Part shown: positions 1 through 37,331 of the stretch, one piece after another | How the letters are laid out: each line of letters starts with the position of its first letter | Numbering within the stretch: position 1 is the first letter of the stretch | Source of the DNA: Bilabrum cf. latius | Lineage: Eukaryota | DNA length: 64,000 nucleotides | Reading direction: 5' to 3' | Assembly (NCBI GenBank): GCA_965178125.1 | Contig: OZ237766.1 | Location: 744,001-808,000 of the forward strand | The notes under the pieces: model-generated | Told to the model about the DNA's origin: nothing | The model's input: only the letters and a program-made list of their open reading frames with translations | Databases searched by the model: none | Translations under genes and position numbers: made by a program

Positions 1-2344
1 GCTCGAGAACAGCGCTGCTGATCCGGCCCCGGCCACTGCCGCCGTGCGGATCCTCCGAGACGGATGACGACGAGGAGGAGGTGATGTTGCCAGGCGCCAT
101 ATCACTGCCGTGCAGTGCACCAATTCCCAACCCCACAGCTCCACGGGCCCCTGGTGTCCCCGGGACGCTCACGCTGCCTGCAGATCTAGCCCCCAGCCCC
201 CCGTGCACGGGGCCCGCCCCCGCTTGTGCCCCGACCTCAGCCCCTGCCCCCCGCTGCTGCCCCTGCCCGTACATGCTGCCCAGCGACTGCGCCCCGATGG
301 ACAGCGCGCCCAGCCCCATGAAACCCCCTGCTGGACTACTCCCCCCCGGACTCTGGCTATGCTCCTGCACGTGCCCCTAGCCTTGATGCAGGCGCAGGGT
401 GTGCTGGGGTGCCCCCGGGGGTGTATCGCTGGGCATGGTCATCATCTGCTGCCTGTGCTCGTCCTTGATGTCCCGCTGATGCTGCATCATTTCAATGCTG
501 TTCTGCATCTGCTGTAGTGCGAGCATGCGCTGCATGTGCAGTGCACGGTGGTGGTGCAGCTGCTGCTCCCTGTAGGCCTCCGCAGGGCCGGTCATCCCAT
601 GCACGCCTGCATACCCCTAACCCCAGCCGGGGGACGATGCGGGGTGCCCCGGGGGGTACGAGGGGGCGCCAAAGGCCCCTTGGGCGGCCGCCGACAGACT
701 CTTCAGCCCCTCATGCCTCGAGCTGTGCGAGCTGGCGGTGCTGCGGTTGGACGAGACATGCTGGCTTGCCGGGCCAGTGTTTGGCAGGACGCCGCCCATG
801 CGATCCGGTCGGCGACCTGAATCATGGTACGACTGCCCGGGGCCCCGCCCGTGGAGTCCTGGAGCAGCAGGTGGCAGGCTGGGCGGCACCGGATGCAGAC
901 TGAACTCGGAGCCCTGTGAGTGTGACGAGTGTGCCGCCGGAGCGACGGGTGACTCGGGCCTGGAGCCGACTGCCACCCCATATCCCATGCCATGGGCCCC
1001 CTTGCCCTTGCCCTTGCCCTTGCCCTTGCCCTTGCCCTTGCCTTTGCCTTTGCCCGCTCTCCCCCTGCTTGACCCAGGCCCTGCCCTCGGGGCCCTCCCC
1101 TGCAGCGTGGCATCCGCGGCCCAGTCAGACACAACAGTGGGTCCGCCCAGGCCCAAATACTCCCGAAGGTGCGGGGGGACTGCAGGGCCCTGCTGGCCTG
1201 CCTCTGCTCCGCTTGGGCTGGAGCCATCCCCCCCCCTGCCTGCACCCTCGGCAGGGGGGGGCAGCACGGGGATGGCAGAGCACACGAACATCTGCGCCTG
1301 CCCGTCGCTTGCCCGCAGCAGGGACATGGACACCAGCGAGGACACGGTCCCTCGCCTGAACTTGCACAGCTTGCGGAAGCAGTGCACCATCGGAGTGCCG
1401 CACCCGTCCTGCCCCACGGTGCCAGCCAGCGGCCTGGACTGCGCCGCCACCATCATGGCAGCCCTGGCGTCTTCGCACGACTCGCAACTGTGGCGGGAGG
1501 CGTCCTCGGCCGATCCCTTTCCTCTTCCATTGCCTTTCCCCTTCCCCTTTCCTGTACCTCTACTTCGATCACTGCCCGCACTGATGCTTCCCTGTCCTGC
1601 CTCCGCTCCGTCACCACCGCCATCACCACCGCCATCACCACCGCCATCGCCACCGCCACCCCCATTTACCCCCCTGCCTTCCTGCTTGCCCTGGTGAATG
1701 AGGGAGGACACCACGTCGAACATGCTGTCCAGCTCGCTCTGGGGGGTCAGCGAGAACACGCTAGAGGCGCGGAGCTGGTCTGCCGTGTACCCCGTGAGCG
1801 CCCTGAACAGGGCGTTCGTGCGGCGGAAGGAGCCGTCCGGGGCTGCCACCGCCATGGCCACGGGCGCCAGTTCGAACACGCAGGGCAGCGGCAGGGGGGC
1901 GCCGGGCAGCGGCAGCAGAGCGCCGGGGGCAGGCACGGGGGTGGGTCGCACGGGGACTGGGGCGGTGTAAGAAGGGACTCCCCCTTGGGAAGGCAAGCCG
2001 CTTCCAGGCACGGCGGGTATGCTGGGGTACGTCTGCTGGGAGGCCGCCTCCGACTCGCCCCCGGTCCGGAGGGACGAGAGCAGGCTGGCCCCGGGATCAC
2101 CGCCGACATGTCCAGCAGTAGGCGGCATCATCCCCAGCTGGATCTTCAGCTGCAGGATGTACTCGTGTGCCCCCGCCAGGATGGAGAACTTGTCCCGGCG
2201 CGTTTCTCTGCCATCTGCCTGCAGCAGCGCGCGGAGGTCCTCGATCTTGAGGCGAATCCTCTCGGCACGGCGCTTTTCGCTGGCATTGTGGCTTTCTCGC
2301 TTTCCATCTCTGCGGGGTGTGGGCTCAAGAGCAACGGGGGACAT
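1..2344 (-). CDS. bHLH-PAS transcription factor, 3'-partial (runs off window start)
   Basis: bHLH motif KRESHNASEKRRAERIRLKIEDLRALL...DKFSILAGAHEYILQL, then a PAS-like segment FELAPVAMAVAAPDGSFRRTNALFRALTGYTADQL. The frame continues through TAGs at 617-619 and 377-379 into a Gln-rich tail with no TAA/TGA down to position 1. A (GK)n repeat lies at about 1000-1053. Confidence 0.85.
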
Positions 2345-2786
2345 TTAGGGTCGCACCGTGGCGGTTTGGCCGCGGTTTCGACCTACCTGGGACGTGTCTT
2401 GAGCAGCTGGACGAGAGCCGCAAGCGCCAAGATCCCCAAGGCAAAGCTCACGTGTGACCATTCTGCAAGAACCAGAGAAATACTTGCGAAGGCAGATAGA
2501 TTGATCCTAGTCGGCAAACTGAACACCAAACTCATCCGACCCAAACAGCAGTACAGAACTTACTTCCGTCCTTCGGCGTTTCATGCCTACTCCCTTGGAG
2601 CTTATGTATCACAATGCAAACAGTGGTGCAAGCAATCTGCCCAGTGGACTCCTCTAACAGGCACAACGTGGAGCATACCGGTCAATTATCGGAAGTGTTG
2701 CATTGTTGCGTGCTGTTATGGGCATTTCGTCTGGTAAAGTTTTCTGCGCAATCTTCTCGTGCAACAGCAGCTTTCAGAAGGAGACG

Positions 2787-3823
2787 ATGGGGTCCACTGA
2801 GGCCAAATAGACCTTTTGGTGTCTCACTGCAGTAGCAGCTTTCGTCAGCTGCTTTCTGGTGGGCTACAGTGTCGGTGAGATTCTGTCCATTCGGGCCCAC
2901 CTTGTACTCAATACATCCCTGCTGAACGGTACTTACAAGGCTTATTGAACAGCATCAAACACGCAGACACGTACCACCCGCTAGAAATGGCGTTCGTCAT
3001 GGATCAGAACCGAGGCGTGCCCGAGACAGGCAGGCTATACAACAATGGTGGTGGGCGGATCATGACGGGGCTGGGACGCAGGTTTGGTTTCAAGTATCCC
3101 AGGAATGCACGTCGGCTGCTTTTCGTCAATGGACAAGGCGCGATGTCTCGACTGATTAGCGGCCGCCTTCGAGACGGCTTGCAAGTCGACATCGGCTTGT
3201 CCGTGCAGTACAAGCTCAGGCAAAGCCAGCAAGAGATGGAAGATCTGTTGTACTCCTACGGCGACGACTGGGAGTCGTTTTACGTGAGGTACATCCGTGG
3301 GGCCGCGCGCAACGTGCTCTCTCAGCACGGCGTGTTTGACATGTGGGAGCGCAGGGGCGACATCCAGGCGGGCCTGGAGCGCGAGATCGGGAACGTGCTG
3401 CGGCGGAGGCACGCCGACCTGGTGGCGGTGCAGCTGTTGAGCCTGGACATCCCCGCGGCAGTGCAGAGCGCGATCGAGAGCACGACGGTGATGGCGCAGA
3501 ACCAGTTCGAGGCATTCGAGCGCAAGGCCGCGACCAACGTGAGCGAGTACACGAGGTTCTTCGAGGCGGACAGGGACGCGGACATTTAGGTGATCAACGC
3601 GAGGAAGGACGGGTTCGTGCTGCTTAGACAGGCCGAGGCAGCGGCCACCTCCCGGCAGCTGGAGATCGACGCGCAAGCCGACTCTCTGGTGGAGCTGCAG
3701 CGTGGCCTCAACATCACGGACAAGGACCTGCTGCTGGCGCTGCTGTACATGGACACACTGTCTGCCACCAGCTCCAGGGTCAGGTTTGGGGTACCGCAGG
3801 CGCAGGCAACCGTGCAGTCATGA
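2787..3823 (+). CDS. SPFH/band-7 (prohibitin-like) membrane protein; exons 2787-2874 and 2967-3823
   Basis: N-terminal anchor FWCLTAVAAFVSCFLVGYSV. A GT-AG intron at 2875-2966 restores the frame. SPFH-like motifs RLRDGLQVDIGLSVQYKL and VQLLSLDIPAAVQSAIE. In-frame TAG at 2808 and 3587; ends TGA. Confidence 0.8.
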
Positions 3824-4277
3824 AGCAAGCTGTCGTTGGATCTGGCACGAATCCAAAAAGGATGCAAGTTCGAAATTCACCCTGTAGATTAGCAAGATAG
3901 ACTACCGGGTACTACGGGTAGCTGCAATCCCGGGTGCCCCACACGTAGCAACCTGCCACGCTTCTCCCACGCCCAACCCTATGCGTAGTGTCTTCTTTGT
4001 GTGGAACCCAACAGGAATGGAAGCTAACTCGGGCACCTCGCAAACTCAATGCTCGCCGAAGTGCAATGCCTTAATTTGGGATGCCGTCCCCGGGGTGGAC
4101 GGCCATCCACTGCCAGTGGCACCCCCCGTCCCCCCCCCCCCCCCCCCAAGTAGCACCCTCGCGGGGCTCAGGGGTCTGAGTGCACTCAGTTCACAAAATA
4201 TCAGATCCCTCCCACCATATCAGCCGCCCTCGGCATTCGTTCGTTCGAGCCTTGCACACTCACAGTTCTTTGCACAA

Positions 4278-5413
4278 ATGGCAAGTTTCAGAGCTATGAA
4301 TGGGCGATTTACCTTCGCACACATGGTGCTGGCAGGATTTGCAGGCACACTCGTAGGATTCTTCGCATTTAACATCGCACAGACAGGGACAACTACTGCA
4401 GTAAGTCAGAAGCCAACACTGGTGCATGGTCCGCGGCTCAAGTATTGCTTAATCTCCGTGCGACATGAGTTTCAAAACAGATACTGCAGAGCGAAACGGC
4501 CTCTGGGTTGTAGCAAGCACGCACCACTCCTCAGGCTGCTGAGAGTACTACCGAGAAAGCATGCCCGGCGTGCGTTTGTGAGTGCGCTGCACAAAAGTGC
4601 CCGGCGTGCCATGGATCTTCACCTGAGGCTGCCATAGCCAGTGACCCTAAAAAAAGTACGTGCGAGGCGTCCTTCGATGTAGCGCCATACAAGTTGGAGC
4701 CGTTGGCCATCAGCAGGTACTCTCCAAGCAGCTTGTGGAGAAAACAAGGCCGCGGCCGCATGCATGAAAATGTCCCAGAAGATGTACAGATGGATGGCAT
4801 CGGCGACTTCTACTCGCTGCGGGCCAAGAAGCGGATGAATGGGTGGTACGAGCCTGGGCAGCTACCTACTCGCCTCAAGCACACGCAAGGCGCCCTACGT
4901 GACGTGCTTAAAATCAAGCCAACAGAGAGTGTCTTAGATCTAGGGTGCGGAAACGGCCTTACGACCCGGTTCATTCACAACGAGCTCGGTGTGAAGGACA
5001 TCATCGGCTCTGATCTGTCGGAAGGTCTCCTGGCAGCAGCAAGGAAGCACAACCCCAGCATCAAATTCATCCAGCACGACGCGACGACCCTGGACCTGGG
5101 GCGCACCTTTGACGTCATCGCTATGGTGGACTCTTTCGAGCACATCCCACAGGAGCTGTACGACGGCATGTTTAGCGTTCTCCGCTAGCACTCCAAGGAA
5201 GGCACGCGCGTATTCTTCTCGATCCCGGCCCCAGAGTTCCAGATCCAAATCTGGAACGAAGGAAAGTCCTATGCACAACCTGTGGACGAGAGCGTGTGGC
5301 CCTCTAAACTGGCCCAGCGCTTGGAAGAAAACGGATTCTCGCTGAGGTACTGGAAGTACTGGAGCAACATTCGGGTGGATGCGGTAGCGGTGAGGCAGAA
5401 CCATGGGGCGTGA
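4278..5413 (+). CDS. Type II membrane class I SAM-dependent methyltransferase (copy 1)
   Basis: TM anchor in exon 1 (4278-4400); GTAAGT intron to CAG at 4480 or 4489. Motif I VLDLGCGNG and FDVIAMVDSFEHIP. In-frame TAG at 4511 and 5186; ends TGA 5411-5413. Paralog at 46192-47321. Confidence 0.85.
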
Positions 5414-5929
5414 GGGGAGACAAGCTAGCGCCGGCGGTAGGGCAGAACCAGGGGGCGTGAGTCCCGATTGTGATCATGATGCCACCAGTGATTCGTTTGT
5501 TCGTTCCGAGTCGTTCGTTCGTTCCGCGTTCGTTCCGAGTCGGTCCCATTTGCATGTAAGTGGAGCTGTGGCATGGTGGCTTGCCACTGGCAGTGGCGAG
5601 ATCAAGAGGGCAGGTAAAATGGACTGCCAGTGGAGGCCGTGCCATCGTTACTGCGACACCCATTTCCGTTTCCAGCGGTAAACTTCGCTACTTGTAGTAC
5701 ATAACCCTTCTACATAGGCTATCAGTATAGGCGTACTTTTTGCCTCGCACTCTCGCATGATAGATCGATATCGCTCGCTCGATCCTCTTTTGGGCACCGG
5801 CAGCCCGGTCAAGTTGTGTCCGCCGCGTGAGCTGTGCACCTGTATCGGCGTGTTCAGATTTTGATTTGTGGATCAATTTGACAAATGATCTTGGTTCTAT
5901 TGCTTGCCCCACACTTGCTTAGAGTCTAC

Positions 5930-7456
5930 TCATTGGAATGCCCATGCTGGCTCGGACGGGCAACTCTTCGCATCGGGTCCCCAGGGCCCTGAATCACAGC
6001 AACCCAGTGCGCTGCATCGTGGCAGCCAAAGCCTCCCCTCACCAACATCATCAACCTACCCGACCATGCAAGGCCCCCTGCAGGCCGGGTCTGTAAGCGG
6101 TCCCAACAGCCAGGCAAACAGCCCCACCCCCGCCAGGTACCCCGCCCACGCCATCGGCACCCACCACTGCACCACCCCCGCCTCCAGCAGCTCCACCACT
6201 GTCATTGGAGCCCCCTTCACCCTTTCCTCCTCCTCAGGCTCCGCCCCGCCCTCGTCTCCGTCCCACAGCCTCATACCCCCTGACAGCCGCCCCTCGAGGC
6301 CCTCCCTCGCGCGCACTAACCGGAGCAGGCCCTCCCGCCGTGCCTGCGCCCGGCTCCGAGTTGTCCCCAGGGTGACCCCCATGGTATCCAGGGGTATTCC
6401 CCGCAGTGCCCCCACATCGGGGAACCCAAAGAAGTTGCACAAGGAATGCGCAGCCATGCTGGCCCCTACGCTTCCGGTCCGAAGCATGACATACCCTGCA
6501 AACATGCCGAACAGCGTCGTGTACGCGAACTAAAAGATGCATTGCACTGTAGCTCGGCTTAGAGGTATGCGCTCCACGCGCACCAATCGGTACAGGTGGT
6601 GCAAGTGCGCCACCCCGAAGAGCAGCGGGGACATCAGTACTACCGCAGCATGCGAGAACCCGCCCTGTAGCAGCAGCGCACACACGCATGCCCTGAAGAC
6701 CCACTCCTCGGTGAAAGGGGCCACCACCAGGTTGCGACCGATCAGCAGCACCTGCTGCATGCGCGCCTCCTCACTGTCCCCGGGGTCCACCAAGTACCGC
6801 CCGCCCAGCCGCTTGGCACCGAGCTCGAGCGTCCTCCACAGCACGCCAAGCTCGAGGGGGGGCAGCGCCTGCTGCCAGCGCCTCGGGCCCTTCGAGAGGG
6901 CGCGGTCGGCTGCGGCCCGGGCTGCCTGCACTTCACCCTGCGCTTCAAATGACTGGCTCGGTGCGTCCGCGGCAACACCCCCACCAGTGCCCGCAAGCGG
7001 CGCCTCGGCGGCCTACTACTCGGCCCGCTCCATCGCCTACCGCAACTCGGTGGATTGGATGCATATTGCATCGGCGTGAGCCCAAACCCGTGCATCAGCC
7101 TACTGGATTGCCTGCAAGAATCCATGCATGCCGGATACGAGCACTGGTCCAAAGAACAGGGCCAGCACTAGCAACAATGATCTAGCGGTGGCGTCTACCA
7201 GCCTAACCATGTCTACCATGCCATGCAAGACGCCAAACGGAACATGAAACTGTCCCTAAATTGAATATATTGCTATGCTCGGCATAATTGCTAGAATGCA
7301 GTACAGTAGTGTCGCAATGCTCCTGAAGATGATCTGCTTGGGATGATCTCTGTCCAGTTTGCGAAGACTGCTTGGGGCCATGTACAAAATACCGACGAAT
7401 CCAACGGCAACCACAGTAGCAGCTCCTACAGCACCAGCTGCAGATATGGATTGCAT
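5930..7456 (-). CDS. RCE1: CAAX prenyl protease 2 (Rce1-like)
   Basis: Motifs RNLVVAPFTEEWVFR, FGVAHLHH, F*FAYTTLFG and HSLCNFFGFP. One continuous 509-codon frame with 7 in-frame TAGs (7256, 7100, 7037, 7016, 7013, 6530, 6056); ends TGA. Confidence 0.9.
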
Positions 7457-7639
7457 CGTATTCAGGGGGTAGCGGCAGTCAGTGATGCAATCGTAATTTT
7501 GACTTTTTCCACGAGTGTTGTTGCGACCGCAGCTCTTCCCGTGGTACACGGTGCCCCGGAGAGGCCCCGATACGACGGTGACCTAGGCGATCGATTTCCT
7601 GCGCTAGTGCCGGCCTTCGTGCTGGATCATGCCGCAGCG

Positions 7640-8716
7640 ATGTTCGTGGCCATGGATACAGTCACCCAGGGAGTGCGCAGGCACCGCATGGCCCACGCCG
7701 GGAGAGCTGCCACAGCGGCGGTGCAAGAAGCCGGCCGTGTGCTGCGCCAGGGCCAGCCTGCATGCCACCCGTGCGGCCTGCACCAGCTGCGGATGCAATG
7801 TGCGATTACAGCGCTCGTGCAGGCGCCAAAGGGCGCCTCGCCCGCGGAGATGCTGTGGGGGATGATTGTTCCAGTCGCGGTACAGCCAGCTGCGAGCAGC
7901 GGCTGGCAGTCCGGCGTGCGGAAGAGCCTGAAGGCTGCCGCCGCCTGCGTCCCAGCCGTGCAGCAGATGCTCAAGCCGTCACTCGGCCTGCACATGCTGT
8001 GCCAACGAGGGGAGAACTCGCGCGCGAGCGCCGTGGACGTGGCGCGAGCCGCACTGCCTGGAGCCCTGGCCAGGGCCTACTGCATTCGAACCAAGCGCGT
8101 GAGCCCGGATGTGCTGGGCACGAGGGTCCTCAGTTCGCCCGCCCCGCCAGAGCCGTCGGTTCCTACGCTGTCGGAGGAACAGCTCCAACTTGCCAATCTT
8201 CAGTGGAAGCTGTCCAGGCTCGGTTGCTAGCGGGACCTCACCGCAGCCACAGACCATTTTGAGTCGAAACGATCCGAGTACAGGCTGCCTGCCCACGCGC
8301 TGAAGTGCTTGTTGGCAGCGAAACAAGCACGCAAGGAGTCTGCTCGCACTGGCAGGGGAGTCGCTCGAAAGGCTGGGAGGGATGCGCAGAGCGCAAGCAG
8401 TGGGGGCAAGTCCGGCGCGAAGCTACGGCGCAAGTCCACCCGCACCGCAGCAGCATCTGCATCCGGACTGACCACCCATCGCCGCTCCGGGGGCGGCGAG
8501 ACCCCGGATACCCCAGAGCCCCTCGTGAATGACCGAGGCCCGGCAAGGCAAGACTCTTCGTTCATGTGGGCCCAGGCTGCCAAGGGCAACGGTGGTGGTC
8601 ACTATAAGTGGCGGGCGGCCATAGCCGATGTCGAGGAGGACGAGGATGATGGGCTGTAGAAGCCGGCATAGAGGGAAGCAGTCACGAGGCAGGCGCTCGC
8701 CCGCCGACGGGCATAA
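7640..8716 (+). CDS. Hypothetical protein, possibly transposon-associated; may extend to 9080 via a frameshift
   Basis: ORFs 7343-8230 and 8309-8659 share a frame joined by TAG; first TAA at 8714-8716. No recognisable domain. Adjacent sequence matches the interior of the long-TIR element. Confidence 0.3.
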
Positions 8717-8789
8717 CACACAGGTGGATGATGAGCTACCCACGCAGCCGGATGGCTCGGGCGACCTGGATGCCACGAGCATCCTCTCC

Positions 8790-9510
8790 AGCGGCACCGG
8801 GGTTGCGGACAGGAAGAGCAGCTCCCCGTCTGGCGTCGGCCAGGATGCATCTCTTTCGAGCGGCGATGCCGTAGCGGAGGGAGTTCACCTTGGTGGGGGT
8901 GGGATAGCGCGGAAGCCGCGGCACGGGCAGGGTGGGGCTGCCCAGCTCAGGATCGGCAGCAAGCGCCGTTGCCGCGGGGCGGAGGCCAAGGCCGACGGAC
9001 AGGGCACGGCTTCCGCGCCCGACGAAGAGGAGTCGCGCCCTTACAAGAAGGTTAGATTCATCGAACCAAATACTGCTTGATTTACGTGCGTTTCTGTACA
9101 TTGTCCTAGTCTAGCAGAGGAGCATCATGCCGGGAAGCCTCCGACCGCTGCCCAGGCGGTCGAACCGCACACCTGCGGCGATGCCAGCTCTATCTACCAC
9201 GCAAACGGCCATAAAGATAGCAAAATACCCGTGCCCGAGCCGAAAAAAAGAAAACCCTAGGCTCGGGCGGAGGGCGCCCCTGCCCGAGCCCAATGCTAGG
9301 CTCGGGCGCAGGTACTCGGCGCCCGAGCCTAACTTTCCGCTCGGGCGCAATCGCTGAAATCGCGGCAAACCCAGTTTAAATATAAAATTATTCGGCTTGG
9401 GCAAAGTTGTCCCGTGCCCGAGCCGAAAGTTTGGCTCGGGCATGGCCGCCCTCCGCCACAGCCCAAAGTTCCGCTGCGGCGCCAATGGCACTGCCAGTGG
9501 CAGCGGGGGA
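8790..9510. mobile_element. Partial, diverged copy of the long-TIR element (right interior plus right TIR)
   Basis: Clear similarity to about 18620-19309, including the GCCCGAGCC-rich arm ending CAGCGGGGGA. No left arm found. Confidence 0.85.
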
Positions 9511-9544
9511 GGCTCCGCAAGATCGGGAAAACCAGCACTTCACG

Positions 9545-10563
9545 ATGTCGAACGTTTGGAGCATGATCTGCAACCTGATGGTTGAACATTATGATATGAA
9601 TGTAGCAAAGGAGTTCGATGTATTTGGCGGAACACTAGTCAGCCGGCGAAGCTTCGGCGACGTGTGCAGCAGGTGCGGATTCTCGCAGACGACGCATTCA
9701 GCGTATGCTGCAGCGTTCTTGGTCGAAGCAGGTGTCCAGTACTGGGTCAAAGACCGGGTGAGAGGTGCCTGACATGCGCTTGCAAACTGCTTGCTGTGTG
9801 TGGTTTGGTTGAGTGCATCTACTGACAGCTACGTTCAAGCCTCTATGAGGATACATACCAGCCGAAAGTCTTGACCTCCCAGGATGGACAATCGGCAATT
9901 CAACTTGCCGAGCAGCTGGAAGACGAGCACGTGGTGGGACAGATACGGGCAAGCATCCGAAGGCGAAAGATCCGAAGCCTGCTGCTGTGGAAACGAGCGC
10001 ACCTGGCGCAGAAAGACGCCAATCTTGTGCTCTTGGCTGCTGCGAATGGGTGGCCCATGGAGCTCGCGAAGAGACTCAGGCTGGGCAAGCTCGTAGGGTC
10101 GTATTCCACGATTGGTCGGCTTCAGGCAGGACCACCCAGGGAGCTGATCCGATGTAGCCCGCTAGATGCAGCGCGTCTTGGAGGGCACAGCGAGTGCGCG
10201 AGTCTCCTGAGATAGGCACTGAAAGCAGAGCCTTGTGCGCGGGGGCTGGAGGCGAACGGTGCGTGTCGCCCTGAAGCGGCACGATTGCCTTGCTCCTGGA
10301 TTCTGCTCGACGACCGCGTTCGCCAGTGGGAGCGCAGGGTGCTTCCGAAGGGCTTGCAGGTGTGGACCGTGCCGTGTGCGATCCCCACACCAGAAGGTGG
10401 ACGTGCTCATGCTGACAATGGCAAAAGCCGACAGGATGACAAGGGATCGTCCAGCGTAGGAGGGCAAGGGTAGACTGTGGCATGGGAGGCGGATGCCATG
10501 TGGGCCCAGCTGTCGAAGAATTGGTTCGGGGGGAAGGACGGGGGCAAACCGGTGCGTGATTGA
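9545..10563 (+). CDS. Ankyrin-repeat protein, short paralog; exons about 9545-9757 and 9883-10563
   Basis: Homologous to 10992-13179 with the same intron position (YWVKDR/GTGAG...CAG/DGQSAIQLA). Ankyrin-like SPLDAARLGGHSECASLL. TAGs at 10213 and 10471; ends TGA. Start uncertain. Confidence 0.6.
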
Positions 10564-13712: not shown

Positions 13713-15467
13713 TCATCCCTGCTGCTGCATGGTCTCGATGCCAAGATCGACGTACCGCTTGGTAATCGCCGCCCGAAGAACTTCCGTGGCGGATGGCCCG
13801 TCATAGTCGGGCCTTGCCCAGCGATGGCCGGGATCTCTCGCTGCCCCTGCGAAATGGAGGAGCTCGGCGGCCTGCTTGAGCCCATCACGCAGCTGCTCCG
13901 CCCTCTCATCGGATATGCCGCGCAGAATGGCAAGCACCTTTCCGCGCCGGAACACGTCGTAGTTCACCCTCAAGCTAGCAAGGTGCCACGGGATCAGGTC
14001 CTGCAATGGGAGCTCCAGATTGTCCTGCACCACCACGGGGATGCAGCCGGACACAAGCATGTCCACCAGCCTGTGGCTCCACAGATTCGGGTGCCAGCCA
14101 GGCAAATACAGACAGAACTTGGTGCGCTGTAACAGGGCGTTGTAGTCCTTAACCCTGCCATTCACGTACACGACCCCGTCTGCTTCCTCTGTCATATCGC
14201 CGTAGAGCCGAAGGCCCGCCTGCCTCACTCCCTGCGAGTACTTTGCCATTTCGTCGCTCTTGTACAGCACGGATCCAACAAACATCATCGTCACTGTCCT
14301 GTCCTGCATGGGCAGACCGAACGGGTGATCTTTGGTCAGCCCGTACCGCCCGACCGTCCCAAGGTCTTTGTACGATCGGAATCCCACACCAAGAGCATAA
14401 CTGGGAGCCACAGTGGTCACCATAGCATTCTACAGGCCAAATACGTGCTGCACCCACATCTTGCAGGTAGTGCGGTCTCTCCATGCCCAGCGCGCGTGCT
14501 CCATGGCCCATTCTCTCCAGTCCATGCCGGACTGAGCGAGGTGCTTCATAGTCAAATTCCAGCCCGGGCCATCCGCCGGAGACTTCGGCATGGTGGGTTG
14601 CAATCCGTGTAATACGTCTTGAATGCCGCGACCTACTCCTGTCACGATCACGAAATCTGCCCCACCCGTTCGTTCCCACCTTGCGGCCACCTTATGAGGA
14701 ATCAGCACCCTCCTTACTAGCTGGGCCATGACGTCTATGCATACACGAGCGAGTCGGGACGGCACCATGGTCTTCTTGCCCTTCCTTTCTACTTTCAGTC
14801 CTGCAAGCGTAATCGACTGCTGATGCATGGGCAGCACAACCAGGTCGGCGGTGTCCATGTCGGCTGCCCAGCCCCCAAACGATCGCTTTGACGATTTTCC
14901 AGAGTCTTGCACCTACAGGACACGGGCCTACTCCCTTTCAAGCGCGTCTAAAATGGTCCACTCCGACGCGAATCCTGCTTCTGTCGTGATCGCAGTCCTG
15001 AAGTCTCGGGGAAGTCGACCTACATCTGGCAGTTCACCTTCGCCCCCCCCTTCCAAAGACAAACCTGCAGCTGCGAGGTAGTCCTTCTCGTCAATACTGC
15101 TGGTCGACTTTGCAGCACACTTGCTTTCAGATGCCCAGTCTTGTTGCATGCAAGTTGCTGGACACAGCATGGATTCTCCCTTCAATCTCTCTGGCAGGAC
15201 GTGAAGCAGCACCTTTCTTGGCGACTAGGCATGAATTTCCCGCATTCGGTTTCGCACAATATGAACAACGTTTGCATCTGTGGCTCGACTCTCCGGACGG
15301 ATACTATCCACTGATCGTGGATAGCCGACCAGTCCACGAACGGCGTCAACCCGTTGAGCCTCCCGGCTGCACTATAAAAATACTAATACAATAGCCATAC
15401 AAAGCAAGACAGGGATACTATGAACCCATGAGAACCTTGAATTCGAAAGTCTTCCCTGGTTTGGCAT
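13713..15467 (-). CDS. Exostosin/GT47-family glycosyltransferase (copy 1), type II membrane
   Basis: TM anchor IPVLLCMAIVLVFL; GT47 C-terminal motif TKFCLYLPGWHPNLWSHRLVDMLVSGCIPVVVQDNLELP. 585-codon frame with TAGs at 15372, 15225, 14928, 14913 and 14430; ends TGA. Confidence 0.85.
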
Positions 15468-15981: not shown

Positions 15982-17280
15982 TCACGTCAAGTTACCATGT
16001 TCTCGCATGATCGCGTCAAGCTCAGCAAGCAAGGCCGGCTGATCTTTCCCGAGACCGCATGTTGCAAATTTTTTGGTAGAATTGGCTGGCCCATTGATTT
16101 TGAACTTTTTACCATTGAGGTGGGCGATGACAGCCTTGTCACCAATTTCGCCGTAGATGGTGTTCCCAGTCGACCTGAGAGATTCTGTACCAATCCTTGG
16201 AATTATCCATCCGAACCCTTTGCGCAGCTTGTTGTACTCTGCAGTACTTAGACAGTGTCTCCCTTCAACTGGAGCATCACTGTTTTCTCCCTTGCGGAGC
16301 GCACCATACATAGTGTGGAATCCCGTTTCCTTCAACTTCCACTCGAGCCCACTCGGACCTGCCTTGAGGTCAGTGAAATTCACATTTGCTTTTCGTATCA
16401 TGCGCATACCGCGCTCAGCATGCCAAAGCGTCGGGTTGTTCGAATTGCCAGGCGTGCGGCAGACCGTCACCTGCTGACTGGTATTGCCGAGCCTTTCTTG
16501 CAGAAGGCAAGGGGCGTCCCATACTCTAGGGACGGTCCTTGTCTTGCTGAAGCGAACGTTGCTAGCATAGGCATCATCTGCTAGCGCAGCCGATATATCT
16601 GAGATAGTGTGTCGCAATCCCCCGGGCAGAAAACACCAATCATGCTCCAGAAGCATGGCAGTCTAGCATTGGGGCGAGCTCGAACATGCCCCTAGTACCG
16701 CTCCCCAGGCCGGAGCAATGGACCCACCACCCTCAGAGACAAACGTGAACGACGCTGGCATGCTCATCACCGCAAAAATGCGCTTTAAATTTCGAATCTC
16801 ATCTTCCAAAGCAGAAGCAGTCTAGTAGGATTGTTGGTCCCTGTTTACAACAATCAGAATAGGGTCACGGTCTTGGAAACTGCTGCGTTGGTTCTAGACA
16901 GCGTTCTAGAAAAAACTATAAACGCTCAGTGCATCCATATGCGGCATCGGAGATAGCTACTTTCTCCAGTGCCCCTGTAGCAGAACAACAGTTCCATTTC
17001 GGCTACCAGCACTGCTCCCAAATGCATCTTGCATGCGTGCGGTGACCATTTGGGAGAAATTTTCATACCATTCTGATCCCTGCTGAAGTTTAATGTCATT
17101 CAACATCTAAAAATGTTGCTCAGCATAGATCTAATGATGTTGCGGATAGGCCTTTTCAGGCGGGCCGAGCACAAGGACTTGGGGGAGCAAGAGATAGATT
17201 CCACCAAGGATAGCTATACCTGCAACAAACAGTAAAATACTGAAAGTCAAGCAAGTTTGACTGCACAGAGATTGCTACAT
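15982..17280 (-). CDS. Putative GT-A fold glycosyltransferase (LLEHDW motif), type II membrane
   Basis: 433-codon frame beginning ATG-TAG-CAA; TM anchor FSILLFVAGIAILGGIYLLL; 8 in-frame TAGs and no TAA/TGA; DxD-like LLEHDWCF and SNNP motif; ends TGA. Family assignment is tentative. Confidence 0.6.
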
Positions 17281-17387
17281 CGTCACTTGGCCGCCACAGG
17301 CTGCGCTGATAGTTCTACGCCGTGCTCACACCTTGGGGAGTTGCAACCGGTTCTAACCTCTGAAGAGGTTGCAACCGCCGGTGATTT

Positions 17388-17511
17388 GTCCCGCGGACTT
17401 CAGGAATGTCGTGAACGCGGAGCATGCAGTGGTTAAGGTTTCTCAGTAGAGTGCTGACACCAGGCCTGCGAAACGTGCGCGAAATGACTGATCAGGGCGG
17501 GGGGTTTGCAA
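17388..17511. repeat. 124-bp dispersed repeat, inverted copy at 47437-47560
   Basis: Reverse-complement match with about 3 mismatches; both copies are intergenic. Confidence 0.85.
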
Positions 17512-17538
17512 GAGGAAGATTAGAAGATCTAAAACCGT

Positions 17539-19309
17539 TCCCCGCTGGCGCCGCAGCGGAACTTTGGGCTGTGGCGGAGAGCGCCTCTGCCCGAGCCAAA
17601 CTTTCGGCTCGGGCACGGGACAACTTTACCCAAGCCGAATTATTTTATATTTAAACTGGGTTTGCCGCGATTTCAGAGATCGCGCCCGAGCGGAATGATA
17701 GGCTCGGGCGCCAAGCACCTGCGCCCGAGCCGAACATTGGGCTCGGGCAGGGGCGCCCTCCGCCCGAGCCTAGGGTTTTCTTTTTTTAGGCTCGGGCACG
17801 GGTATTTTGCTGATACATTGGTCAGTAACTGCGAAATATGAAAAGTCTCAGCACCTACATCGCGCAAACGTGCAAATGCATTGGCAGTACTCGCTGCGAA
17901 CGTCAGGGACTCTGCCGAACGATAACCACTATCAACCAAGCCAAGTAGCATGACCAATTGTGCTCCAATCAAGCGATTGCCAGGGCCAGCAGATGCTCTT
18001 GGAAGCTTCAGCGGGCGGATCCCCGGCCGCGCGTGCTGGGTGGCTAGCCATGGGGTGGCTTTCCCGGCCAGCCTGGAGGCGGGCGAGGCCGTCTCGATGC
18101 AGTTGGCACCGTGCATGTGCTGGCACTGCGCTGCACTGCAGGACTTGCAGCTGGGAGCTGTGTCGGGCGGTGACTTGCTGAGCACCTGCGTGGGCGGCTG
18201 CAGCACACCCACCCGCCTGCCACCACTGGCACGCCAGCTCCAAGGCAGCCCCCGTGCCCCGCCCACTCTAGCAGGTGCCTGGCATTGTACTGACACCGGT
18301 GATATCGTGGATCTGCCTGGGCTGGCCGCTGGGGGCGAGGGTGCTATGGACGAGGAGGGGGAGGAGGGGGACGGGGCGGCGCAGCGCACATCGATGGCGG
18401 CAAGCAGAGGCAGGAGCAGCTGCCACAAGCACGCATGGGAGCCAGGGAGCCATGGGTCTGTTTGACGAGGAGGAAGCAAACCTCGTCGGGCAACCGCCGG
18501 GCAAGGGTGAAGGCAGCAGCAGCAGCAGCAGTGCGGCAGCATCGTGGTGGCAGGCGGGACGGCCTGGTCCTGGATGGTGATCTGAAGGGCCTCCCTGGGC
18601 TGGCCGCCGGGGGAGTGGGGGGGCACCGGGATGGTGGACAGAAAGAGTAGTTCGTAGCCCGGCGTCGGCCAGGGTGTGTCTCGTCCGAGCGGTGATGTCG
18701 TAGCGGATGAAGTTAGCCCTGGTGGTGATGGGGTCGTGCGGAAGCCGCGGCACGGCCAGGGTGGGGCTGCCCAGCTCAAGTACCGGCAGCAAGCGCAGTC
18801 GCAACGCCAAGGCCGACGGACAGGGCACGGCTTCCGCGCCCGACGAAGAGGAGTCGCGCCCTCAGAAGAAGGTTTGATTCATCGAGCCAAATACTGCTTG
18901 AATTGCGTGTGTTTCTGTACATTGTTCTGGCAGCAGGATCATCATGCCGGGAAGCCTCCGACCGCTGCCCAGGCGGTCGAACTGCACGCTGGTGGCGATG
19001 CCATCCCCATCTACCACGCAAACGGCCATAAAGATAGCAAAATGCCCGTGCCCGAGCCGAAAAAAAGAAAACCCTAGGTTCGGGCGGAGGGCGCCCCTGC
19101 CCGAGCCCAATGTTCGGCTCGGGCGCAGGTGCTTGGCGCCCGAGCCTAACATTCCGCTCGGGCGCGATCTCTGAAATCGCGGCAAACCCAGTTTAAATAT
19201 AAAATAATTCGGCTTGGGCAAAGTTGTCCCGTGCCCGAGCCGAAAGTTTGGCTCGGGCAGAGGCGCTCTCCGCCACAGCCCAAAGTTCCGCTGCGGCGCC
19301 AGCGGGGGA
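17539..19309. mobile_element. Non-autonomous long-TIR (foldback-like) DNA element, copy 1
   Basis: About 270-bp inverted arms (17539-17811 and 19036-19309) built from nested GCCCGAGCC/GGCTCGGGC hairpins. Near-identical copy at 33651-35408. No transposase motif and no clear TSD. Confidence 0.9.
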
Positions 19310-19649
19310 AGCGTGCGCCAATCCTATTCTACGTTTGGCTAGTAATGGAGAATTTGAGCAATACATTCTGAAACTGAACAGCCTAAAGGGCTTGTTTGTA
19401 CCGCTGCCACACGTTGTACCACACGGCAGACCCGTAGAAGCGCCAAGACGCTTGTTGAGCCCGTAAGCTGGATGCACATCTTGCATTCAGACGATACCCG
19501 TGCTTCTCTCCAGTGATCACTCCCTACCGGCATCTGCCTTTGGTGTGGAGAACGCTGCATCTTCATAAGTTGAAGTGTTTACTTGGCGCGCATAGGTAGA
19601 CGGCCGCCCACTCGCTGCACCGATCCGCCGAGCTGCCGCTGCTGCGCTG

Positions 19650-22030: not shown

Positions 22031-24415
22031 TCAGTGCGATCGTTCTATACCAGTCACGTTGAGAAGTGTCCCCGCATCCAGATCTGACCGCGTGACACTG
22101 GTGCGCCCCTTGTTGTGATAGTGCACCTGCGTGAGCTTTAGCCATGGCTCGTAGGACGTCAGCGCGTGGCCTCGGCGCCGCCGGAACTGAAGAAAGGCCT
22201 TGCAGTTATCAGTTCCGCCTTCCGTGCTGCGGCCCCGGACGGCCACTGCCCCCCTTGTCCCCACGGAGCCGCACGCGCCCTCTGTGCCGCAAGGGGACAC
22301 CCGCCCATCGCTGCACTCCGCTGCCCACCGTAACTCCACGTCTGCGCACGGCTGGAATGTCGCACTGTTGCAGAATCCTTGTGGTCCAAACCCGTTCTCG
22401 GGGTTCGCTCCGCCAATCCATTGCCCCCAACCCGCGCAATCGACGAGTCCGGGCCAGCCCTGCGGCACGGCACCTGCTGGGACAGCGAGTGGGCGAGCCG
22501 ATGCCTGCGCTCGAAGCTGAGGAGGGGACTTGGCATCGAACAGCAAGAGCGACTTCAGCCTCGCCATTTCGTTGCTTCCCTTGCACGCTGCAACCTCCGA
22601 CTCCGTGAGAATGCTTGGGGAGCACATGATGAATCCGGCAAGCCGGCGGAGCCCCGCGAGCGACTATACGAGCAGGAAGTTGGCTAGGGCGTTGTTTTTC
22701 CGCATGGTCGTAAACCAAACACCATTTCCGTACGCCTGTGCAAGCGGACGGAGCATGGCCACGTCCTCGTACAGCAAATTGTCGTTCTCCATGTGAAGCA
22801 GCTCCGTAGCGTTGTGCTCGTGCGCCCACGCGTCCAGCAGCAGCAGTCGCTCCGCCGTGAAGCGCCAGAAGCCGTCACGAAAGCCGGTGTTGAACGGTAT
22901 CTTACCTTTCTGAAACTAAAGCAGGGCCTGCGTCGGCTGGATGTTCTCAACAGGAACGAACTCCACGGGATGCCCGAAGCCATCGTCCAGCTCGAGCCGG
23001 CCGGCAAAGCGCCTCTCCGATATGACGATGCGGCGAGAGCGAGGGTTCCACATGCCCGCGTTCGCGAGGCTGTTGGGTAGAAAATCCGGCCAGCGTTTGC
23101 CCTTGTGCACCCAAACGAGGGGAACGGGTGGCGCCAGCTCGCGGTGCGCATGTATTCGCCTACTCCACCACGACAGCCGCAGCCATGGCACTGCCGTCCT
23201 CGGATCGTACGTGCCGAGCTTCGCGGCGAAACGATCGAACTTGATGTCTGCGAAGCCCTACGGTCCGCCAATCAGCACTGCAGCTCGCAGCCCGGGGCAC
23301 TCGTCCAGTAGCAGCGCCGTGAACGGCAAGTCCTCCAGCACGGGCACGCTGCCAGAGTACAGCGACTCCCAGAGGCGGTGCTTGTCCGGGCCACTGCCTC
23401 GGGGAGTTAGCACGAAGCGGTTCTTCTGTAAGACCTTGGTCACGTAGTCGCGCCCGCGGTGCTTGTCGGCCATGAAGTGGCCTGCCGCCCTCGCTGCATC
23501 CATGAGTGGGCCCCGGCTCCCGCTCGTCGGCCGCATGTAGGTGACCGTGACCCGAGCGGGCCGCTTTGACGCCCCCCCCTCGATCTCCTGCCTGCTAGCC
23601 CATGACCACATTGCCGGCCCCTGAGGATCCCACTGGGAGTTCTGCACCCCGTCGGGGAACAGGTGCGCCCGCTTGTGCCGGAACCCCAGGCCGACTGCGT
23701 ACAGGTGGACCTGCGGGTACCGGTCCAGGAACGGCCTCCACTTGTCCTCGCGCGGCGTCGCGGCACCGTTGTGCACAAGAACCGCAGTCAGTTGGCCGTG
23801 CGCTGCCGCGGCCTCCACGTATGGCCACCATGGCTCCTGTGCCGACCAATTGGAAAGGAGAGACAGCACCCTGGCTCTCTTGGCGTCTTCCCGCTGCGCC
23901 TCCGTCGCCGTCTCGAACACTCGGAGCTTCTGCCCAGCCTCCGCCGGAACTGAGTGCATGAACTTCGCCTCGCTTACGGTCCCCATCAGAACCAGGTCCG
24001 CCAGGGCTGCCAATCGAGCGCCCTGCACGATCTCGTCCGCCTCGATCGAGCTGTTGTCGAACACGGCCGTCGGAAGGCCACCGACGAAGTTGAAATGCGC
24101 CGGATGGCTCTTTGTATCGTGTGCTTTTACAGCTGGTGCGACAGGATCCTCGTTGGCTACGGGAACATGAGTGTCTCGAGGTCGCTCTTGGTCATTCGTG
24201 CTTGAAGCTATCGGTGATGAATGCATCGCACCATACCATGCGATGGTAATAGCCCATGCCAAAGCCGAGCAGGCGATCACGACGCCAACTAGCCTACAGA
24301 GCATTTCCTTTTGCCGCCATCTCACGCAGGCGAGGCAATGCGTGCTACATTGCGAGCTAAGCGCGGGCTTTTGAGCAGACTGCTGTTGTGTTGAGGCGGG
24401 ATTGGAGCGGATCAT
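22031..24415 (-). CDS. Two-domain glycosyltransferase: GT47/exostosin-like domain plus GT-A-like domain, type II membrane
   Basis: TM anchor LVGVVIACSALAWAITIAWY; RFVLTPRGSGPDKHRLWESLYSGSVPVL; after the TAG at 23258 a second domain FWRFTAERLLLL...LLHMENDNLLY. 795 codons, TAGs at 23258, 22916 and 22664; ends TGA. Confidence 0.75.
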
Positions 24416-24754
24416 ACGCCTGTTCGCGGTCGGCACAGCTTCAAGTCGTAAGGATGCTGCGACGTATTTCTAGCTGCTACTGGCAGCCTGATTCTTCGCA
24501 TCCTGATCGACGGGAAGTGAGCTCATCGCTGCTTCAGTTTGTGGAGTACTGAGACGAAGACACGGCGTTTCTAGTCGCTAGATGGTGTCGTCAGATCCTA
24601 AAAGAATTCAATATTATGTATTGGTCTTGATGTCTTCGCCCCTAGTAGAGGCGATCGACGAAAGAACTGCCTGGCTCCGCTCATTTCAGGCTCGCCCCCT
24701 GGTTATATCAAATTTTCGTGCAAAGTGTACGCAACCACCTGGCAGATCCTCAGC

Positions 24755-24802: not shown

Positions 24803-25946
24803 CAGACCTGTCCACAGCGGCACCCCCGGACAGGCCCCGGACACCCCCGGACAGCCATTTCTGGACATCGTGTCCGGGGGTCGAATTCTTAACTCGTCTA
24901 ATAATTGTCCTATGCAAAAAATAAGACCAGATTTGGCCTTCTCGCGGCGATTTAAGGTCGATCAACTCGGTCGCTCAACTCTCAGTTGCGCCGCCGCCGC
25001 GGAAAATTTCGCAAAACAGTACGCAACCTTCGATTCTGATATACACGTTTCCCATTCCCAGGCAACCAATATCCTCCAACAAACAATACTAGACGTACAG
25101 TCGCATATAATTAGTTTATTATATAATGTTGGTACTGAGTAATGTTGAATAAGTATTTCTGAGCCCAGAATCCGGCAACTACCTGTGGAGACCAGGTGCA
25201 ACTCCTGAGATGCATCCACCAATTCTGGATCAACTAGCAAAATTATGCACTGGTTATCATTAAATAGGTTTAATAAATCATGTTTCGTCGTTGGTGGTCG
25301 CTGTATGGAGATACATTGGCGTAAACCCCCTTGGGACACTGAGAAAGTAAGCGTTGGTGTTCTCAACGATAAGTGAGGTTTGTGTACTTATTGATACCCT
25401 GGATTGGGATTTTATGTAGCAAATATACCATTCGTATGATGTGAATGCTGATGCATGTCAATATCGTGGTACCCTTTGTGGGCGGCCAATCTGGCCAATT
25501 GAGAGCCGCCATACTGGCTGCTGTGTACAGAAATTCCAGAGCCTAGGACATCAATTATGTTTGATTTACACACCTTACCCTATTAATTGCTGGTAGTGTG
25601 CACGCTGGGGTGACTGGTCCTTAGAACTGGCCTGGAGCAGGGGCCCGGCACCTGCTCAGCCTTTCAAAGGAACATTGACCGCATTATAACTGCGTACAAC
25701 CAGAAATATCAATCTATATGATACTAAAAATGATGATACAACCATAAATTTGCAATATAACCCTCGGAGTCTGGAGGAAAGTGCCGGAATATGTCTCTAC
25801 GTCGATTGTAGCCTTCTGTTTGAAAGTACACCTTATCCCTCAGAGTTTCACTTTTCGACCCCCGGACAGGGGACGAGGGGTCCTGTCCGGGGGCCAGAAA
25901 GTGGATTTTGACCCCCGGACAGTCCGGGGGTCCGTGGACAGGTCTG
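24803..25946. mobile_element. Non-autonomous hAT-like DNA transposon
   Basis: 13-bp TIR CAGACCTGTCCAC/GTGGACAGGTCTG; perfect 8-bp TSD TCTCAGCA (24795-24802 and 25947-25954); subterminal CCCCCGGAC repeats; AT-richer interior without a transposase. Confidence 0.9.
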
Positions 25947-25954
25947 TCTCAGCA

Positions 25955-32900: not shown

Positions 32901-33537
32901 AACTGATTGGTATTTCCCAATGGAAGTTCCAGGTGACCCTGATATGTTGCTTACCCTTGACGATCTTGTCGTAGACGTCTCGAATCCAGTTGCACTTGCG
33001 GCCTTTTCTCGCACCAGTGTATCCGTTGATTTGGGCATCGAGCCAGTTGAAATCAGAAGTGACATCTTGGTTCTGCCACTGTTGCCGAACGTGATTCGGC
33101 GCTGTCCAGTTCAGTACAGGAGAGCTAGAAGCGCCAAGCAACGCCGGGCCAACGAAAGACTCCAGGCGAGACGGCCAGGACTGCTCGATGTAAAATATCC
33201 TCCCCGTCATGGTACTGAGGAAGAAAGTTGACATGATTCCTTTGATTCTGTCCCCAAAACCACTGCAAGGTCGCTCGCAAACCCAGGTCAAAGTGCTGGA
33301 CGCCGGATTGTCTCTGGTGTCGCGATGAAGCCGCACGTAGTCCTCGAAGGGCCCGCTGTACTCTGGTTTGGGTCCAGTTATAGATGATGATGCTTTGAGC
33401 GAGGCTACACGTGAGAGCTGTGAGCGCAAGCTATCATTTGCCCGCCACACGATGGTAGCGAACACGGCCACTGAAACGAAAAGGGCGACCCCTGCCACCA
33501 CGCGGACTCTAAAAATACTATCCGCGAAGAATTTCAT
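29956..33537 (-). CDS. Fucosyltransferase-like (GT23/GT37-type) plus exostosin/GT47 fusion, type II membrane, about 1193 aa
   Basis: TM anchor; GFGDRIKG, IGVHLRLG and EWFALGQMDALLVTGSGF; then KVYVY, TTDPDEATMFVVP, GADHFMVFAHDQG and SLFLIAPQGWASWTPRPVEG. A single frame of 1194 codons with 15 TAGs and no TAA/TGA until the TGA at 29956-29958. Confidence 0.85.
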
Positions 33538-33650
33538 GTTGCGTTATCAGTCAAGTGAACAGACCTGTTTGCGCAAGAACCTGAGGGGTTCAGCGACCTG
33601 AAACCTCAAATATACTTCGCGCCAGTCGATTGTGGGCAGCGAGCACTGCT

Positions 33651-35408: not shown

Positions 35409-35460
35409 CCAGTGGCATAGTGTGATGGTGCTGAAGTTGATTTGCAGTGCCCACTGTTTT

Positions 35461-36528: not shown

Positions 36529-37331
36529 AGTGCCTATTGTTCGACGAAACGAATCTAGATTCTAGAATCTACCTCTCAAAAGGATCCGCCCTGTCAACTC
36601 AATGTCCTGTGCGTGCCGCAGGGCAGAGTTCAACCCTAAACACTATCTGAGATATATAAATACCAGAGATGTATCGGATACTAGTGTTGACGGGAAACAG
36701 CAGCGCTACGAACGAACGAACGAGCCAATCTGTGGGTTTTATAGCTCCGAGTCCAATGATAGCGTGCTAATACTGGTTTACGATCCGTACACCAGGAGCG
36801 TCACGAAGCGAGCATCACGAGTGGAATCCGAGAAGAAAAGAGAATATATAAAATTCAAGCTCGCCAACCTACCCAAACGCTATCACTTGAGCAAAAAATT
36901 GTCAAGAAGCGAGCGTTTGTTAATTGCTCAATTCCGGTTCGATTGTTGCAAACGATGCCCTGAACGCTACAGCTGCTGCCATCAGCTGAACCTGAAGAAT
37001 TTGTTCGTGGTATTTGTATATAGTAGTCTGTATTGTACGACACGGCGACTTAAAGTCCTACGGAATCAAGAGATTAAAGTACCCTGGAGGAATAAGACTC
37101 CGCGTTCATGCGCCGTGGGAAAAGTCGCGGGCCAAGAAACCCAATTCAAGCGGTAAGACAAGTAAATTGGATGGCAATATGATCACAGTACGATTCCACT
37201 GCGTTTCGGTGTTGGCTTGCTGCACGTGCATGATTCTCTTAAGCAACGGCACGCATTTGTCGGCCTTCAATCCATCTGCACAGGCAATGTAGTAGTGCGA
37301 GGTATCCTGTCGTACTTTCGTATACCGTCTC

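Follow-up and report, generated by a model that had tools for sequence, protein, structure and literature searches.

Probable reading of UAG as glutamine, with UAA and UGA retained as stops, in a window of a Bilabrum cf. latius contig

Gene content of the window

The window analyzed here is a stretch of 64,000 nt with a G+C content of 58%, taken from Bilabrum cf. latius contig OZ237766.1 (positions 744,001-808,000, forward). Within it we examined 21 ORFs, together comprising 13,575 codons, and 19 of the 21 contain Pfam domains scoring above the curated cut-off. The families detected include bHLH, Band 7, methyltransferase, Rce1, and CoaE domains, the glycosyltransferases GT47, GT15, GT8, GT92, and GT64, and TupA-like ATP-grasp, NAD-dependent epimerase, and reverse transcriptase domains. 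No Pfam family matched the ORF at 15985-17325 (447 codons, 8 in-frame TAGs), and the GT47-like ORF at 22034-24607 yielded a sub-threshold match of 20.9 bits against a cut-off of 33.4. A tRNA scan of the 64-kb window returned no tRNA genes, and no eRF1 gene lies in it either. The best explanation for the window is that it is nuclear, from a GC-rich eukaryotic genome whose introns are short and bounded by GT..AG.

The 21 ORFs, which are free of TAA and TGA by definition, contain 106 in-frame TAGs and no in-frame TAA or TGA; reading the same stretches in their other two frames gives 154 and 86 TAGs, 45 and 57 TAAs, and 274 and 203 TGAs. The largest number of in-frame TAGs in one gene is 15, found in the ORF at 29959-33543. 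When TAG is counted together with the 375 CAG and 161 CAA codons of these ORFs, it accounts for roughly one sixth of the Gln-type codons, and TAGTAG doublets are not enriched (14 observed, about 21 expected). Opening TAA barely lengthens the ORFs, with the longest remaining at 860, while opening TGA also swells ORF totals in this GC-rich window. Because of that inflation, total ORF length was not used as evidence, and continuity of homology was used in its place. By that measure TAG is a sense codon here, as both conserved domains and paralog alignments run through the TAGs.

The only argument for TAG being a true stop, with the genes being pseudogenes, assembly errors, or RNA-edited to CAG, is the role that this codon has in the standard code. 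We consider this reading extremely improbable, as across the 21 ORFs the frames are interrupted by TAG alone and never by TAA or TGA, in-frame conservation resumes past each TAG, and at least one TAG position (38535) appears to be common to a close homolog, judging from where the frame of the public protein P0010 ends. Furthermore, the same TAGs are found in contigs from four sequencing runs (X1, X5, X6, and X7) belonging to three studies, which were compared over window positions 1-8400. The kind of runs X5 to X7 is unrecorded, and we took them to be cDNA-like solely from the GT..AG-bounded joints in their contigs, at 4401-4489, near 2875-2966, and, on the minus strand, at 2310-2563. Seven TAGs (377, 617, 3587, 5186, 7037, 7100, and 7256) are unchanged in contigs of these three runs, with at least 31 nt on either side and no differences. 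One of them, the in-frame TAG of methyltransferase gene a (5186-5188, plus strand), lies in a spliced contig, X5 record 12, which joins 4200-4400 to 4490-5700 without any difference from the window. RNA editing is thus unlikely, since contigs with spliced joints keep the TAG, with the caveat that contigs can hide rare variants.

An in-frame TAG at a conserved glutamine of Rce1

On the minus strand, the ORF at 5933-7456 encodes an Rce1-like type II CAAX prenyl protease and contains seven in-frame TAGs; its start was placed at the first plausible ATG and its end at the TGA at 5930-5932. The Pfam family PF02517 (Rce1-like) matches it with an E-value of 3.7e-18 (66 bits, against a cut-off of 22.4), and the translation contains the EExxxR, FxxxH, and HxxxN motifs, which we take to be the catalytic motifs of Rce1. 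The Pfam match covers the TAG at 6530-6532 (minus strand), placing this codon within the catalytic domain of the protease, in the motif F-Q-[FLM]-x-Y-T-[TS]-L-F-G. This TAG also lies in an X1 DNA contig spanning 1064-7551 and in an X6 contig spanning 6506-6742, both without differences, although in the latter the flank is only 24 nt.

A reading made earlier from the letters of the window and its ORF translations (the sequence-only reading) had proposed that this codon stands at a conserved Gln of Rce1, in the peptide IF*FAYTTLFG, and had given the family motif as FQFxYTxxFG. The ORF does give IF-TAG-FAYTTLFG. We aligned 125 distinct Rce1 homologs with MAFFT, seven from one search and 118 more from a second, and the column containing TAG 6530 is Gln in 124 of the 125 and Met in the remaining one. 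The preceding column is F in 89 of the 125 homologs, and the following one is F in 65, L in 29, and M in 14; after a variable column come Y (118), T (125), T (116), L (112), F (125), and G (125). The motif given there was therefore essentially right, and the invariant residues 3' of the TAG are all retained in frame.

Like known members of PF02517, the window protein has the same Pfam match, all three motifs, and the FQ.xYT.LFG helix. It differs from them in having, ahead of the catalytic half, an insert of about 110 residues that includes four TAGs, as well as a long C-terminal tail. The six other TAGs of this ORF fall in variable columns or in the insert absent from homologs. A sequence comparison of the Rce1 protein to solved structures found no match, even at an E-value of 10.

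Paralog comparisons and likelihoods

Several genes of the window have paralogs within it, and the six closest-paralog alignments cover 34 sites at which a TAG faces a residue, alongside 2,900 positions without TAG, which are 64% identical. This tally leaves out a column in which TAG faces TAG (42227/51614) and a site at which it faces a gap (48220). The longest stretch of continuity is offered by the epimerase-fusion paralogs, whose alignment of 1,072 residues at 76% identity passes through nine TAGs.

All six of the pairings of TAG with Gln named in the sequence-only reading are real, with the codons it gave. In methyltransferase gene b (minus strand), the TAG at 46363-46365 aligns with CAG 5240-5242 of paralog a and the TAG at 46327-46329 with CAA 5276-5278, each with a local identity of 10/14. 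The TAG at 38535-38537 (plus strand) of the GT8/ATP-grasp/epimerase gene a aligns with a CAG of paralog b at a local identity of 13/14. In GT8 gene c, the TAG at 48457-48459 (plus strand) faces Gln in paralog d and in the public protein P0009, and Lys in its own close homolog, P0011. Finally, the two GT47 genes on the minus strand provide a reciprocal pair of cases, with the TAG at 14928-14930 of gene a aligned with a CAA of gene b, and the TAG at 57957-57959 of gene b aligned with a CAG of gene a.

Over the 34 sites, the TAG partners are R (7), Q (6), E (4), T (4), two each of K, H, S, A, and L, and one each of G, W, and P. The earlier description of these partners held in part: R, E, K, and T are frequent and Asp is absent, but no Tyr was found, L, W, and P are present, H, S, and A each occur twice rather than once, and the Asn it listed is found only in a distant GT8 comparison. 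Gln thus makes up 18% of TAG partners, compared to 3.4% of aligned residues. Genuine Gln codons pair with Gln in 45% of cases, however, against 18% (6/34) for TAG. Either the positions that TAG occupies are unusually variable, or part of the ORF sequence is noncoding; probably TAG lies mostly at weakly constrained positions and some stop-to-stop stretches are untranslated.

To rank the candidate residues, the frequencies of partners were taken from these alignments themselves, BLOSUM62 pseudocounts were added, and the results were converted to log-likelihoods relative to Gln. For all 34 sites these are -7.6 for K, -7.8 for R, -24.0 for S, and -24.5 for E; for the 20 sites with a local identity of at least 6/14 they are -8.2, -12.2, -19.3, and -14.1; and for the 14 sites with a local identity of at least 9/14 they are -2.7, -7.9, -8.4, and -7.4, in the same order. 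In the set formed by close-homolog sites and frame ends, described below, the values are -11.5 for K, -16.1 for E, and -28.5 for S. Gln ranks first in every paralog subset and in the close-homolog set.

These figures bear on two other residues in particular. Lys is second in every ranking, and it faces TAG at 5186 and 56781 in paralogs and at 48457 in a close homolog. Nevertheless, a code in which UAG means lysine is very improbable, given that Lys is found in none of the 125 homologs at the Rce1 column, that the combined close-homolog evidence places it 11.5 log units below Gln, and that three close-homolog frames end where the window has CAG rather than AAG. Glutamate has a precedent, as UAR is read as Glu in peritrich ciliates and UAG in one oligohymenophorean, and Glu faces TAG at 4 of the 34 paralog sites as well as at 38406 in P0010. 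The Rce1 column argues against UAG meaning glutamate in the same way (0/125), as do all of the likelihoods, from -7.4 at the best-aligned sites through -16.1 for the close homologs and frame ends to -24.5 over all paralog sites, leaving this meaning about as improbable as Lys. The preference for Gln over Glu expressed in the sequence-only reading is accordingly borne out by the likelihoods and close homologs, which reject Glu firmly. Its supporting argument from the absence of Asp is factually correct (0/34) but weak, because only about 1.9 Asp would be expected if TAG were Glu.

Remote homologs were also compared at TAG positions outside Rce1. A GT8 profile search retrieved 3,045 matches at E <= 0.001; from the best 150 of them we tabulated the residues at nine TAG columns and computed scores for seven. 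Among these best 150 of the 3,045, the seven columns score 3.4 for E, 3.4 for S, 3.2 for K, 2.1 for T, and 1.2 for Q, so that Glu is the top-scoring residue here, jointly with Ser. All of these columns are variable, surface-type, and without a preference for Gln. Comparison to solved structures gave D, Q, H, and H at the CoaE TAG column and K, S, S, R, and A at the epimerase TAG column, and the nine non-Rce1 columns from GT8, CoaE, and epimerase are all variable, with Gln not favored in any. For GT15, the alignments to solved structures stop short of the TAGs, and for the methyltransferase, the only stretch reaching over the TAGs is one insignificant second stretch. Among individual sites, the TAG at 30316 faces the hydrophobic residues L and V in a GT47 motif, and the TAG at 48718 faces T in three sequences.

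Only one window TAG, that at 6530, falls in a strongly conserved column, and the sole TAG in an invariant column is at a Gln column. Because the other columns are variable, the assignment of Gln rests on this one invariant column together with the close-homolog evidence. The caution about sample size voiced in the sequence-only reading was justified on the same grounds.

Close homologs and the ends of their frames

Using a profile of the four GT8 paralogs and a short-fragment search, we retrieved four proteins from public assemblies (P0009, P0010, P0011, and P0169) which are 78-92% identical to window genes, with 86% identity over 1,404 aligned positions. These may be orthologs from related species or paralogs lying outside the window. 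The short-fragment search with the 1,195-residue GT47 protein returned a single match, P0169, which spans no window TAG but has a usable frame end. A metagenome scan with the same GT47 protein found two loci, with 36% identity over 57 residues, and no close relative.

Six window TAGs are spanned by these proteins. Gln is found opposite three of them: in P0009 for the TAGs at 61201-61203 and 61042-61044 of GT8 gene d (both minus strand; at the former, paralog c has Glu), and in P0010 for the TAG at 38307-38309 of gene a (plus strand; Ala in paralog b). The remaining three face Glu (38406), Lys (48457), and Thr (48718). Pairing with Gln at this level is thus 3/6 for TAG, compared to 71% for true Gln codons.

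The positions at which the four proteins terminate provide a second and weightier line, and the close homologs as a whole are the strongest evidence added by this analysis. Each frame ends one codon before a window CAG (three proteins) or a window TAG (one protein). P0011 stops at the CAG at 49225-49227 (plus strand), midway through a region that is conserved in paralog d as well, and P0169 stops at the CAG at 31753-31755 (minus strand), with the GT47 domain continuing just beyond. P0010 ends just before the TAG at 38535, where paralog b has CAG, and P0009 stops at the CAG at 60853-60855 (minus strand), near the C-terminus, the least secure of the four. Three of the frame ends lie well inside conserved regions whose sequence carries on in the window, which makes them interruptions rather than genuine protein ends. 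With a codon frequency of 4.7%, the chance of all four frames ending on a Gln-type codon is about 5e-6. The natural reading, from the protein ends alone, is that the DNA of the homologs would have TAG where the window has CAG.

These data, together with those above, also bear on serine, which is the meaning reported for TAG in the green alga Scotinosphaera (PMC8271138). The codon pattern is the same in both, with TAG as sense and TAA and TGA as stops, green algae are the best named Rce1 matches, and some window TAGs face Ser or Thr: the residue opposite 54165 is Ser in both comparators, 54117 is paired with T and S, and 47893 with S. Yet Ser is absent from the Rce1 column (0/125) and from the six close-homolog TAG sites (0/6), it is found at only 2 of the 34 paralog sites, and the close-homolog frames end at CAG rather than at Ser codons. 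Its log-likelihood relative to Gln is -24.0 over all paralog sites, -8.4 at the best-aligned sites, and -28.5 for the close homologs. A Scotinosphaera-type code was rejected on these counts, and we regard Ser as extremely improbable.

Termination codons

Nineteen ORF ends were available, of which 17 are TGA and two are TAA. TGA is retained as a stop, and so is TAA, the latter from its two ORF ends and its absence in frame. The TAA at 46192-46194 (minus strand) ends methyltransferase gene b and aligns with the TGA at 5411-5413 that ends methyltransferase gene a, while the epimerase-fusion paralogs both end with TGA at aligned positions. All gene ends fixed by homology are TGA or TAA, and none is TAG. 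CAA constitutes 30% of CAR codons, so a Gln meaning for TAA too would predict about 45 in-frame TAAs, and none was observed. A table-6 code, in which both UAA and UAG mean Gln, was ruled out by this absence and by the TAA at a homology-fixed gene end.

Two places remain at which TAG could act as a terminator. The TAG at 6056-6058 lies nine codons past the last conserved Rce1 helix, and homologs end shortly beyond it; the ORF at 60571-62769 has six TAGs in its last 85 codons, which resemble an untranslated tail. Both would suit an ambiguous UAG, either one decoded, for want of a dedicated suppressor, by near-cognate tRNAs that supply Gln for the most part, along with some Lys or Tyr, or one that serves as sense within genes and as a terminator near their ends. 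Such ambiguity would also accommodate the more mixed partners of TAG relative to real Gln codons (18% against 45% self-pairing) and the second-best rank of Lys, which trails Gln by just 2.7 log units over the 14 sites of best alignment. However, genes with as many as 15 in-frame TAGs (29959-33543) need efficient decoding, a mixture of residues would not be tolerable at the invariant Gln of Rce1, Tyr is not found among the partners at all, and the homology-fixed ORF ends are all TGA or TAA. We therefore consider ambiguous decoding unlikely, although it is the most plausible of the alternatives discussed.

Discussion

Taken together, the results make it very probable that UAG means glutamine in this genome and that UAA and UGA still terminate; Gln came out best in each comparison with the power to discriminate between residues. 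In the mechanism we propose, UAG would be an ordinary sense codon read as glutamine by a tRNA-Gln with anticodon CUA, presumably derived from tRNA-Gln(CUG), which would pair with UAG and not with UAA. An eRF1 with lost or weakened recognition of UAG would be expected to act alongside it.

Knowing the identity of the residue makes the proteins of this genome translatable, as gene calling under the standard code fragments its genes. The consequences are visible in the public close-homolog proteins, which are truncated at TAG or at positions aligned with Gln. For many years, reassignment of UAG alone was regarded as prevented by its coupling to UAA, and to our knowledge it is documented in no more than a handful of lineages. 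A GC-rich case with mainly UGA termination widens the conditions under which a UAG-only change can arise.

The placement of the organism is less certain than the code. The gene content of the window is not that of a ciliate or a fornicate. Among named sequences, those of Chlamydomonas species (chlorophytes) match the Rce1 protein best, at 53-55% identity, and an Rce1 tree of 39 rows places the window sequence within a polytomy; because of that polytomy, this identity is the only basis for a green-algal placement. We tentatively raise the idea, which we think is doubtful, that the window derives from a green alga within or close to the sole lineage reported to have TAG but not TAA as sense, and that TAG there means Gln and not the published Ser. 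If so, the ulvophycean codes would fit a single stepwise path, in which UAG would have been reassigned to Gln first through a CUA suppressor and UAA captured later in sister orders, with this GC-rich, TGA-terminating genome representing a living intermediate. A green-algal origin would also bear on whether green-algal codes arose once or several times and on the published Ser assignment. In the literature, we found no report of a UAG-only reassignment to Gln in an alga.

Comparison with known codes

Among green algae, UAA and UAG both mean Gln in four ulvophycean lineages (PMC2984419), and the users of this code (table 6) listed in the sources drawn on here are Dasycladales, Cladophorales, Trentepohliales, and Blastophysa, along with many ciliates, hexamitid diplomonads, and oxymonads (PMC2984419, PMC11687900). 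For the green algae, a stepwise model involving a suppressor tRNA-Gln and a change in eRF1 has been proposed (PMC2984419, PMC11687900). The window shares with table 6 the reading of a stop codon as Gln, but TAA is not a sense codon here (0 in 13,575 codons). Scotinosphaera (Ulvophyceae) is described as having TAG as Ser with TAA and TGA as stops (PMC8271138), while a bioRxiv preprint describes its code simply as non-canonical (10.1101/668475). TAG alone is reassigned both there and in the window, and a green-algal context is possible for the window as well; the amino acid differs, being Gln here and Ser in Scotinosphaera (PMC8271138).

The closest likeness is to the code of NCBI table 15, in which UAG alone is reassigned to Gln. 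It is described for Iotanema spirale (PMC5304391) and for the ciliates Protocruzia tuzeti, Hartmannula sinica, and Trochilia petrani (PMC11687900). In the ciliate cases, Gln accounted for 58-70% when conserved columns were tabulated (PMC11687900). As set out in the source on Iotanema, CUA is the sole anticodon that reads UAG but not UAA, and in known Gln cases the tRNA with anticodon CUA arose from tRNA-Gln(CUG) and the codon-recognition motifs of eRF1 are changed (PMC5304391). All four of these organisms share with the window UAG at conserved Gln positions and UAA and UGA as stops (PMC5304391, PMC11687900), and a tRNA-Gln with a CUA anticodon would likewise be the expected mechanism in the window (PMC5304391). 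In contrast to the table-15 lineages, for which UAA is given as the main stop codon (PMC5304391, PMC11687900), the window uses TGA at 17 of 19 ORF ends and has a G+C content of 58%, and its gene content is, unlike theirs, neither that of a ciliate nor that of a fornicate. As UAG read as Gln with UAA and UGA as stops is the table-15 pattern, the window would very probably represent a further case of a known type of code.

Gene content of the window

Duplicated glycosyltransferase genes cluster across the whole window, with four of family GT8 and three to four of family GT47, and the ATP-grasp domain is present in four copies. In two fusion paralogs of about 1,100 codons each (36996-40445 and 53724-56864, both on the forward strand), a GT8 glycosyltransferase, a TupA-like ATP-grasp domain and an NAD-dependent sugar epimerase share a single frame. 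In another GT8 ORF, that of GT8 gene d, the final 85 codons (60571-60825, reverse strand) contain six TAGs (7%), and this stretch looks like an untranslated tail. The methyltransferase paralog b (46195-46934, reverse strand) is divided between two overlapping frames, 46195-46806 and 46614-46934, a split that suggests either an intron or a frameshift; Gly stands opposite its TAG at 46761.

A GC-rich repeat is found in three copies (8500-9700, 17500-19600 and 33600-35600). The copies are 85-97% alike in all reading frames, and it is therefore the DNA itself that is similar. Inside them, the long Pro/Ala-rich "ORFs" are probably non-coding.

ORFs at the extremes of TAG density

Within the window, TAGs are densest in the ORF at 15985-17325 (reverse strand), which has eight in 447 codons; a Pfam search of this ORF matched no family. 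An intact reverse-transcriptase ORF of 859 codons (25824-28400, forward strand) has no TAG at all, versus about 6.7 expected at the window rate of 7.8 per 1,000 codons. This ORF may belong to a young or newly arrived retroelement that is still without the host's additional Gln codon.

Comparison with contigs from sequencing runs

Joints, at which a run contig skips a stretch of the window as in splicing, were found in the contigs of runs X5-X7 at 2310-2563 (reverse strand), about 2875-2966 (forward strand) and 4401-4489 (forward strand). These joints mark short introns with GT..AG ends; at 2310-2563, 11 additional letters lie between the two sides of the joint. From 7554 to 8282, the window differs from the X1, X5 and X7 contigs at 28 single bases, and in the 6.5 kb preceding 7554 there are zero differences between the window and the run contigs. 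The differences at 7554-8282 may mean that another haplotype, or else a diverged copy, starts near 7550.

The Rce1 ORF

The ORF of the CAAX protease Rce1 contains an insert of about 110 residues, around 7013-7102 (reverse strand), that is absent from homologs. Four TAGs, including one TAGTAG doublet, fall within it. The X5 and X6 contigs carry the insert without a joint, and it is thus not an obvious intron. Toward the 3' end, the TAG at 6056-6058 (reverse strand) lies nine codons past the last conserved Rce1 helix (..PLTDP..), and the ORF continues beyond it for 42 codons before TGA. If TAG has a dual use, this TAG could be a terminator, and its position is roughly where homologs end.
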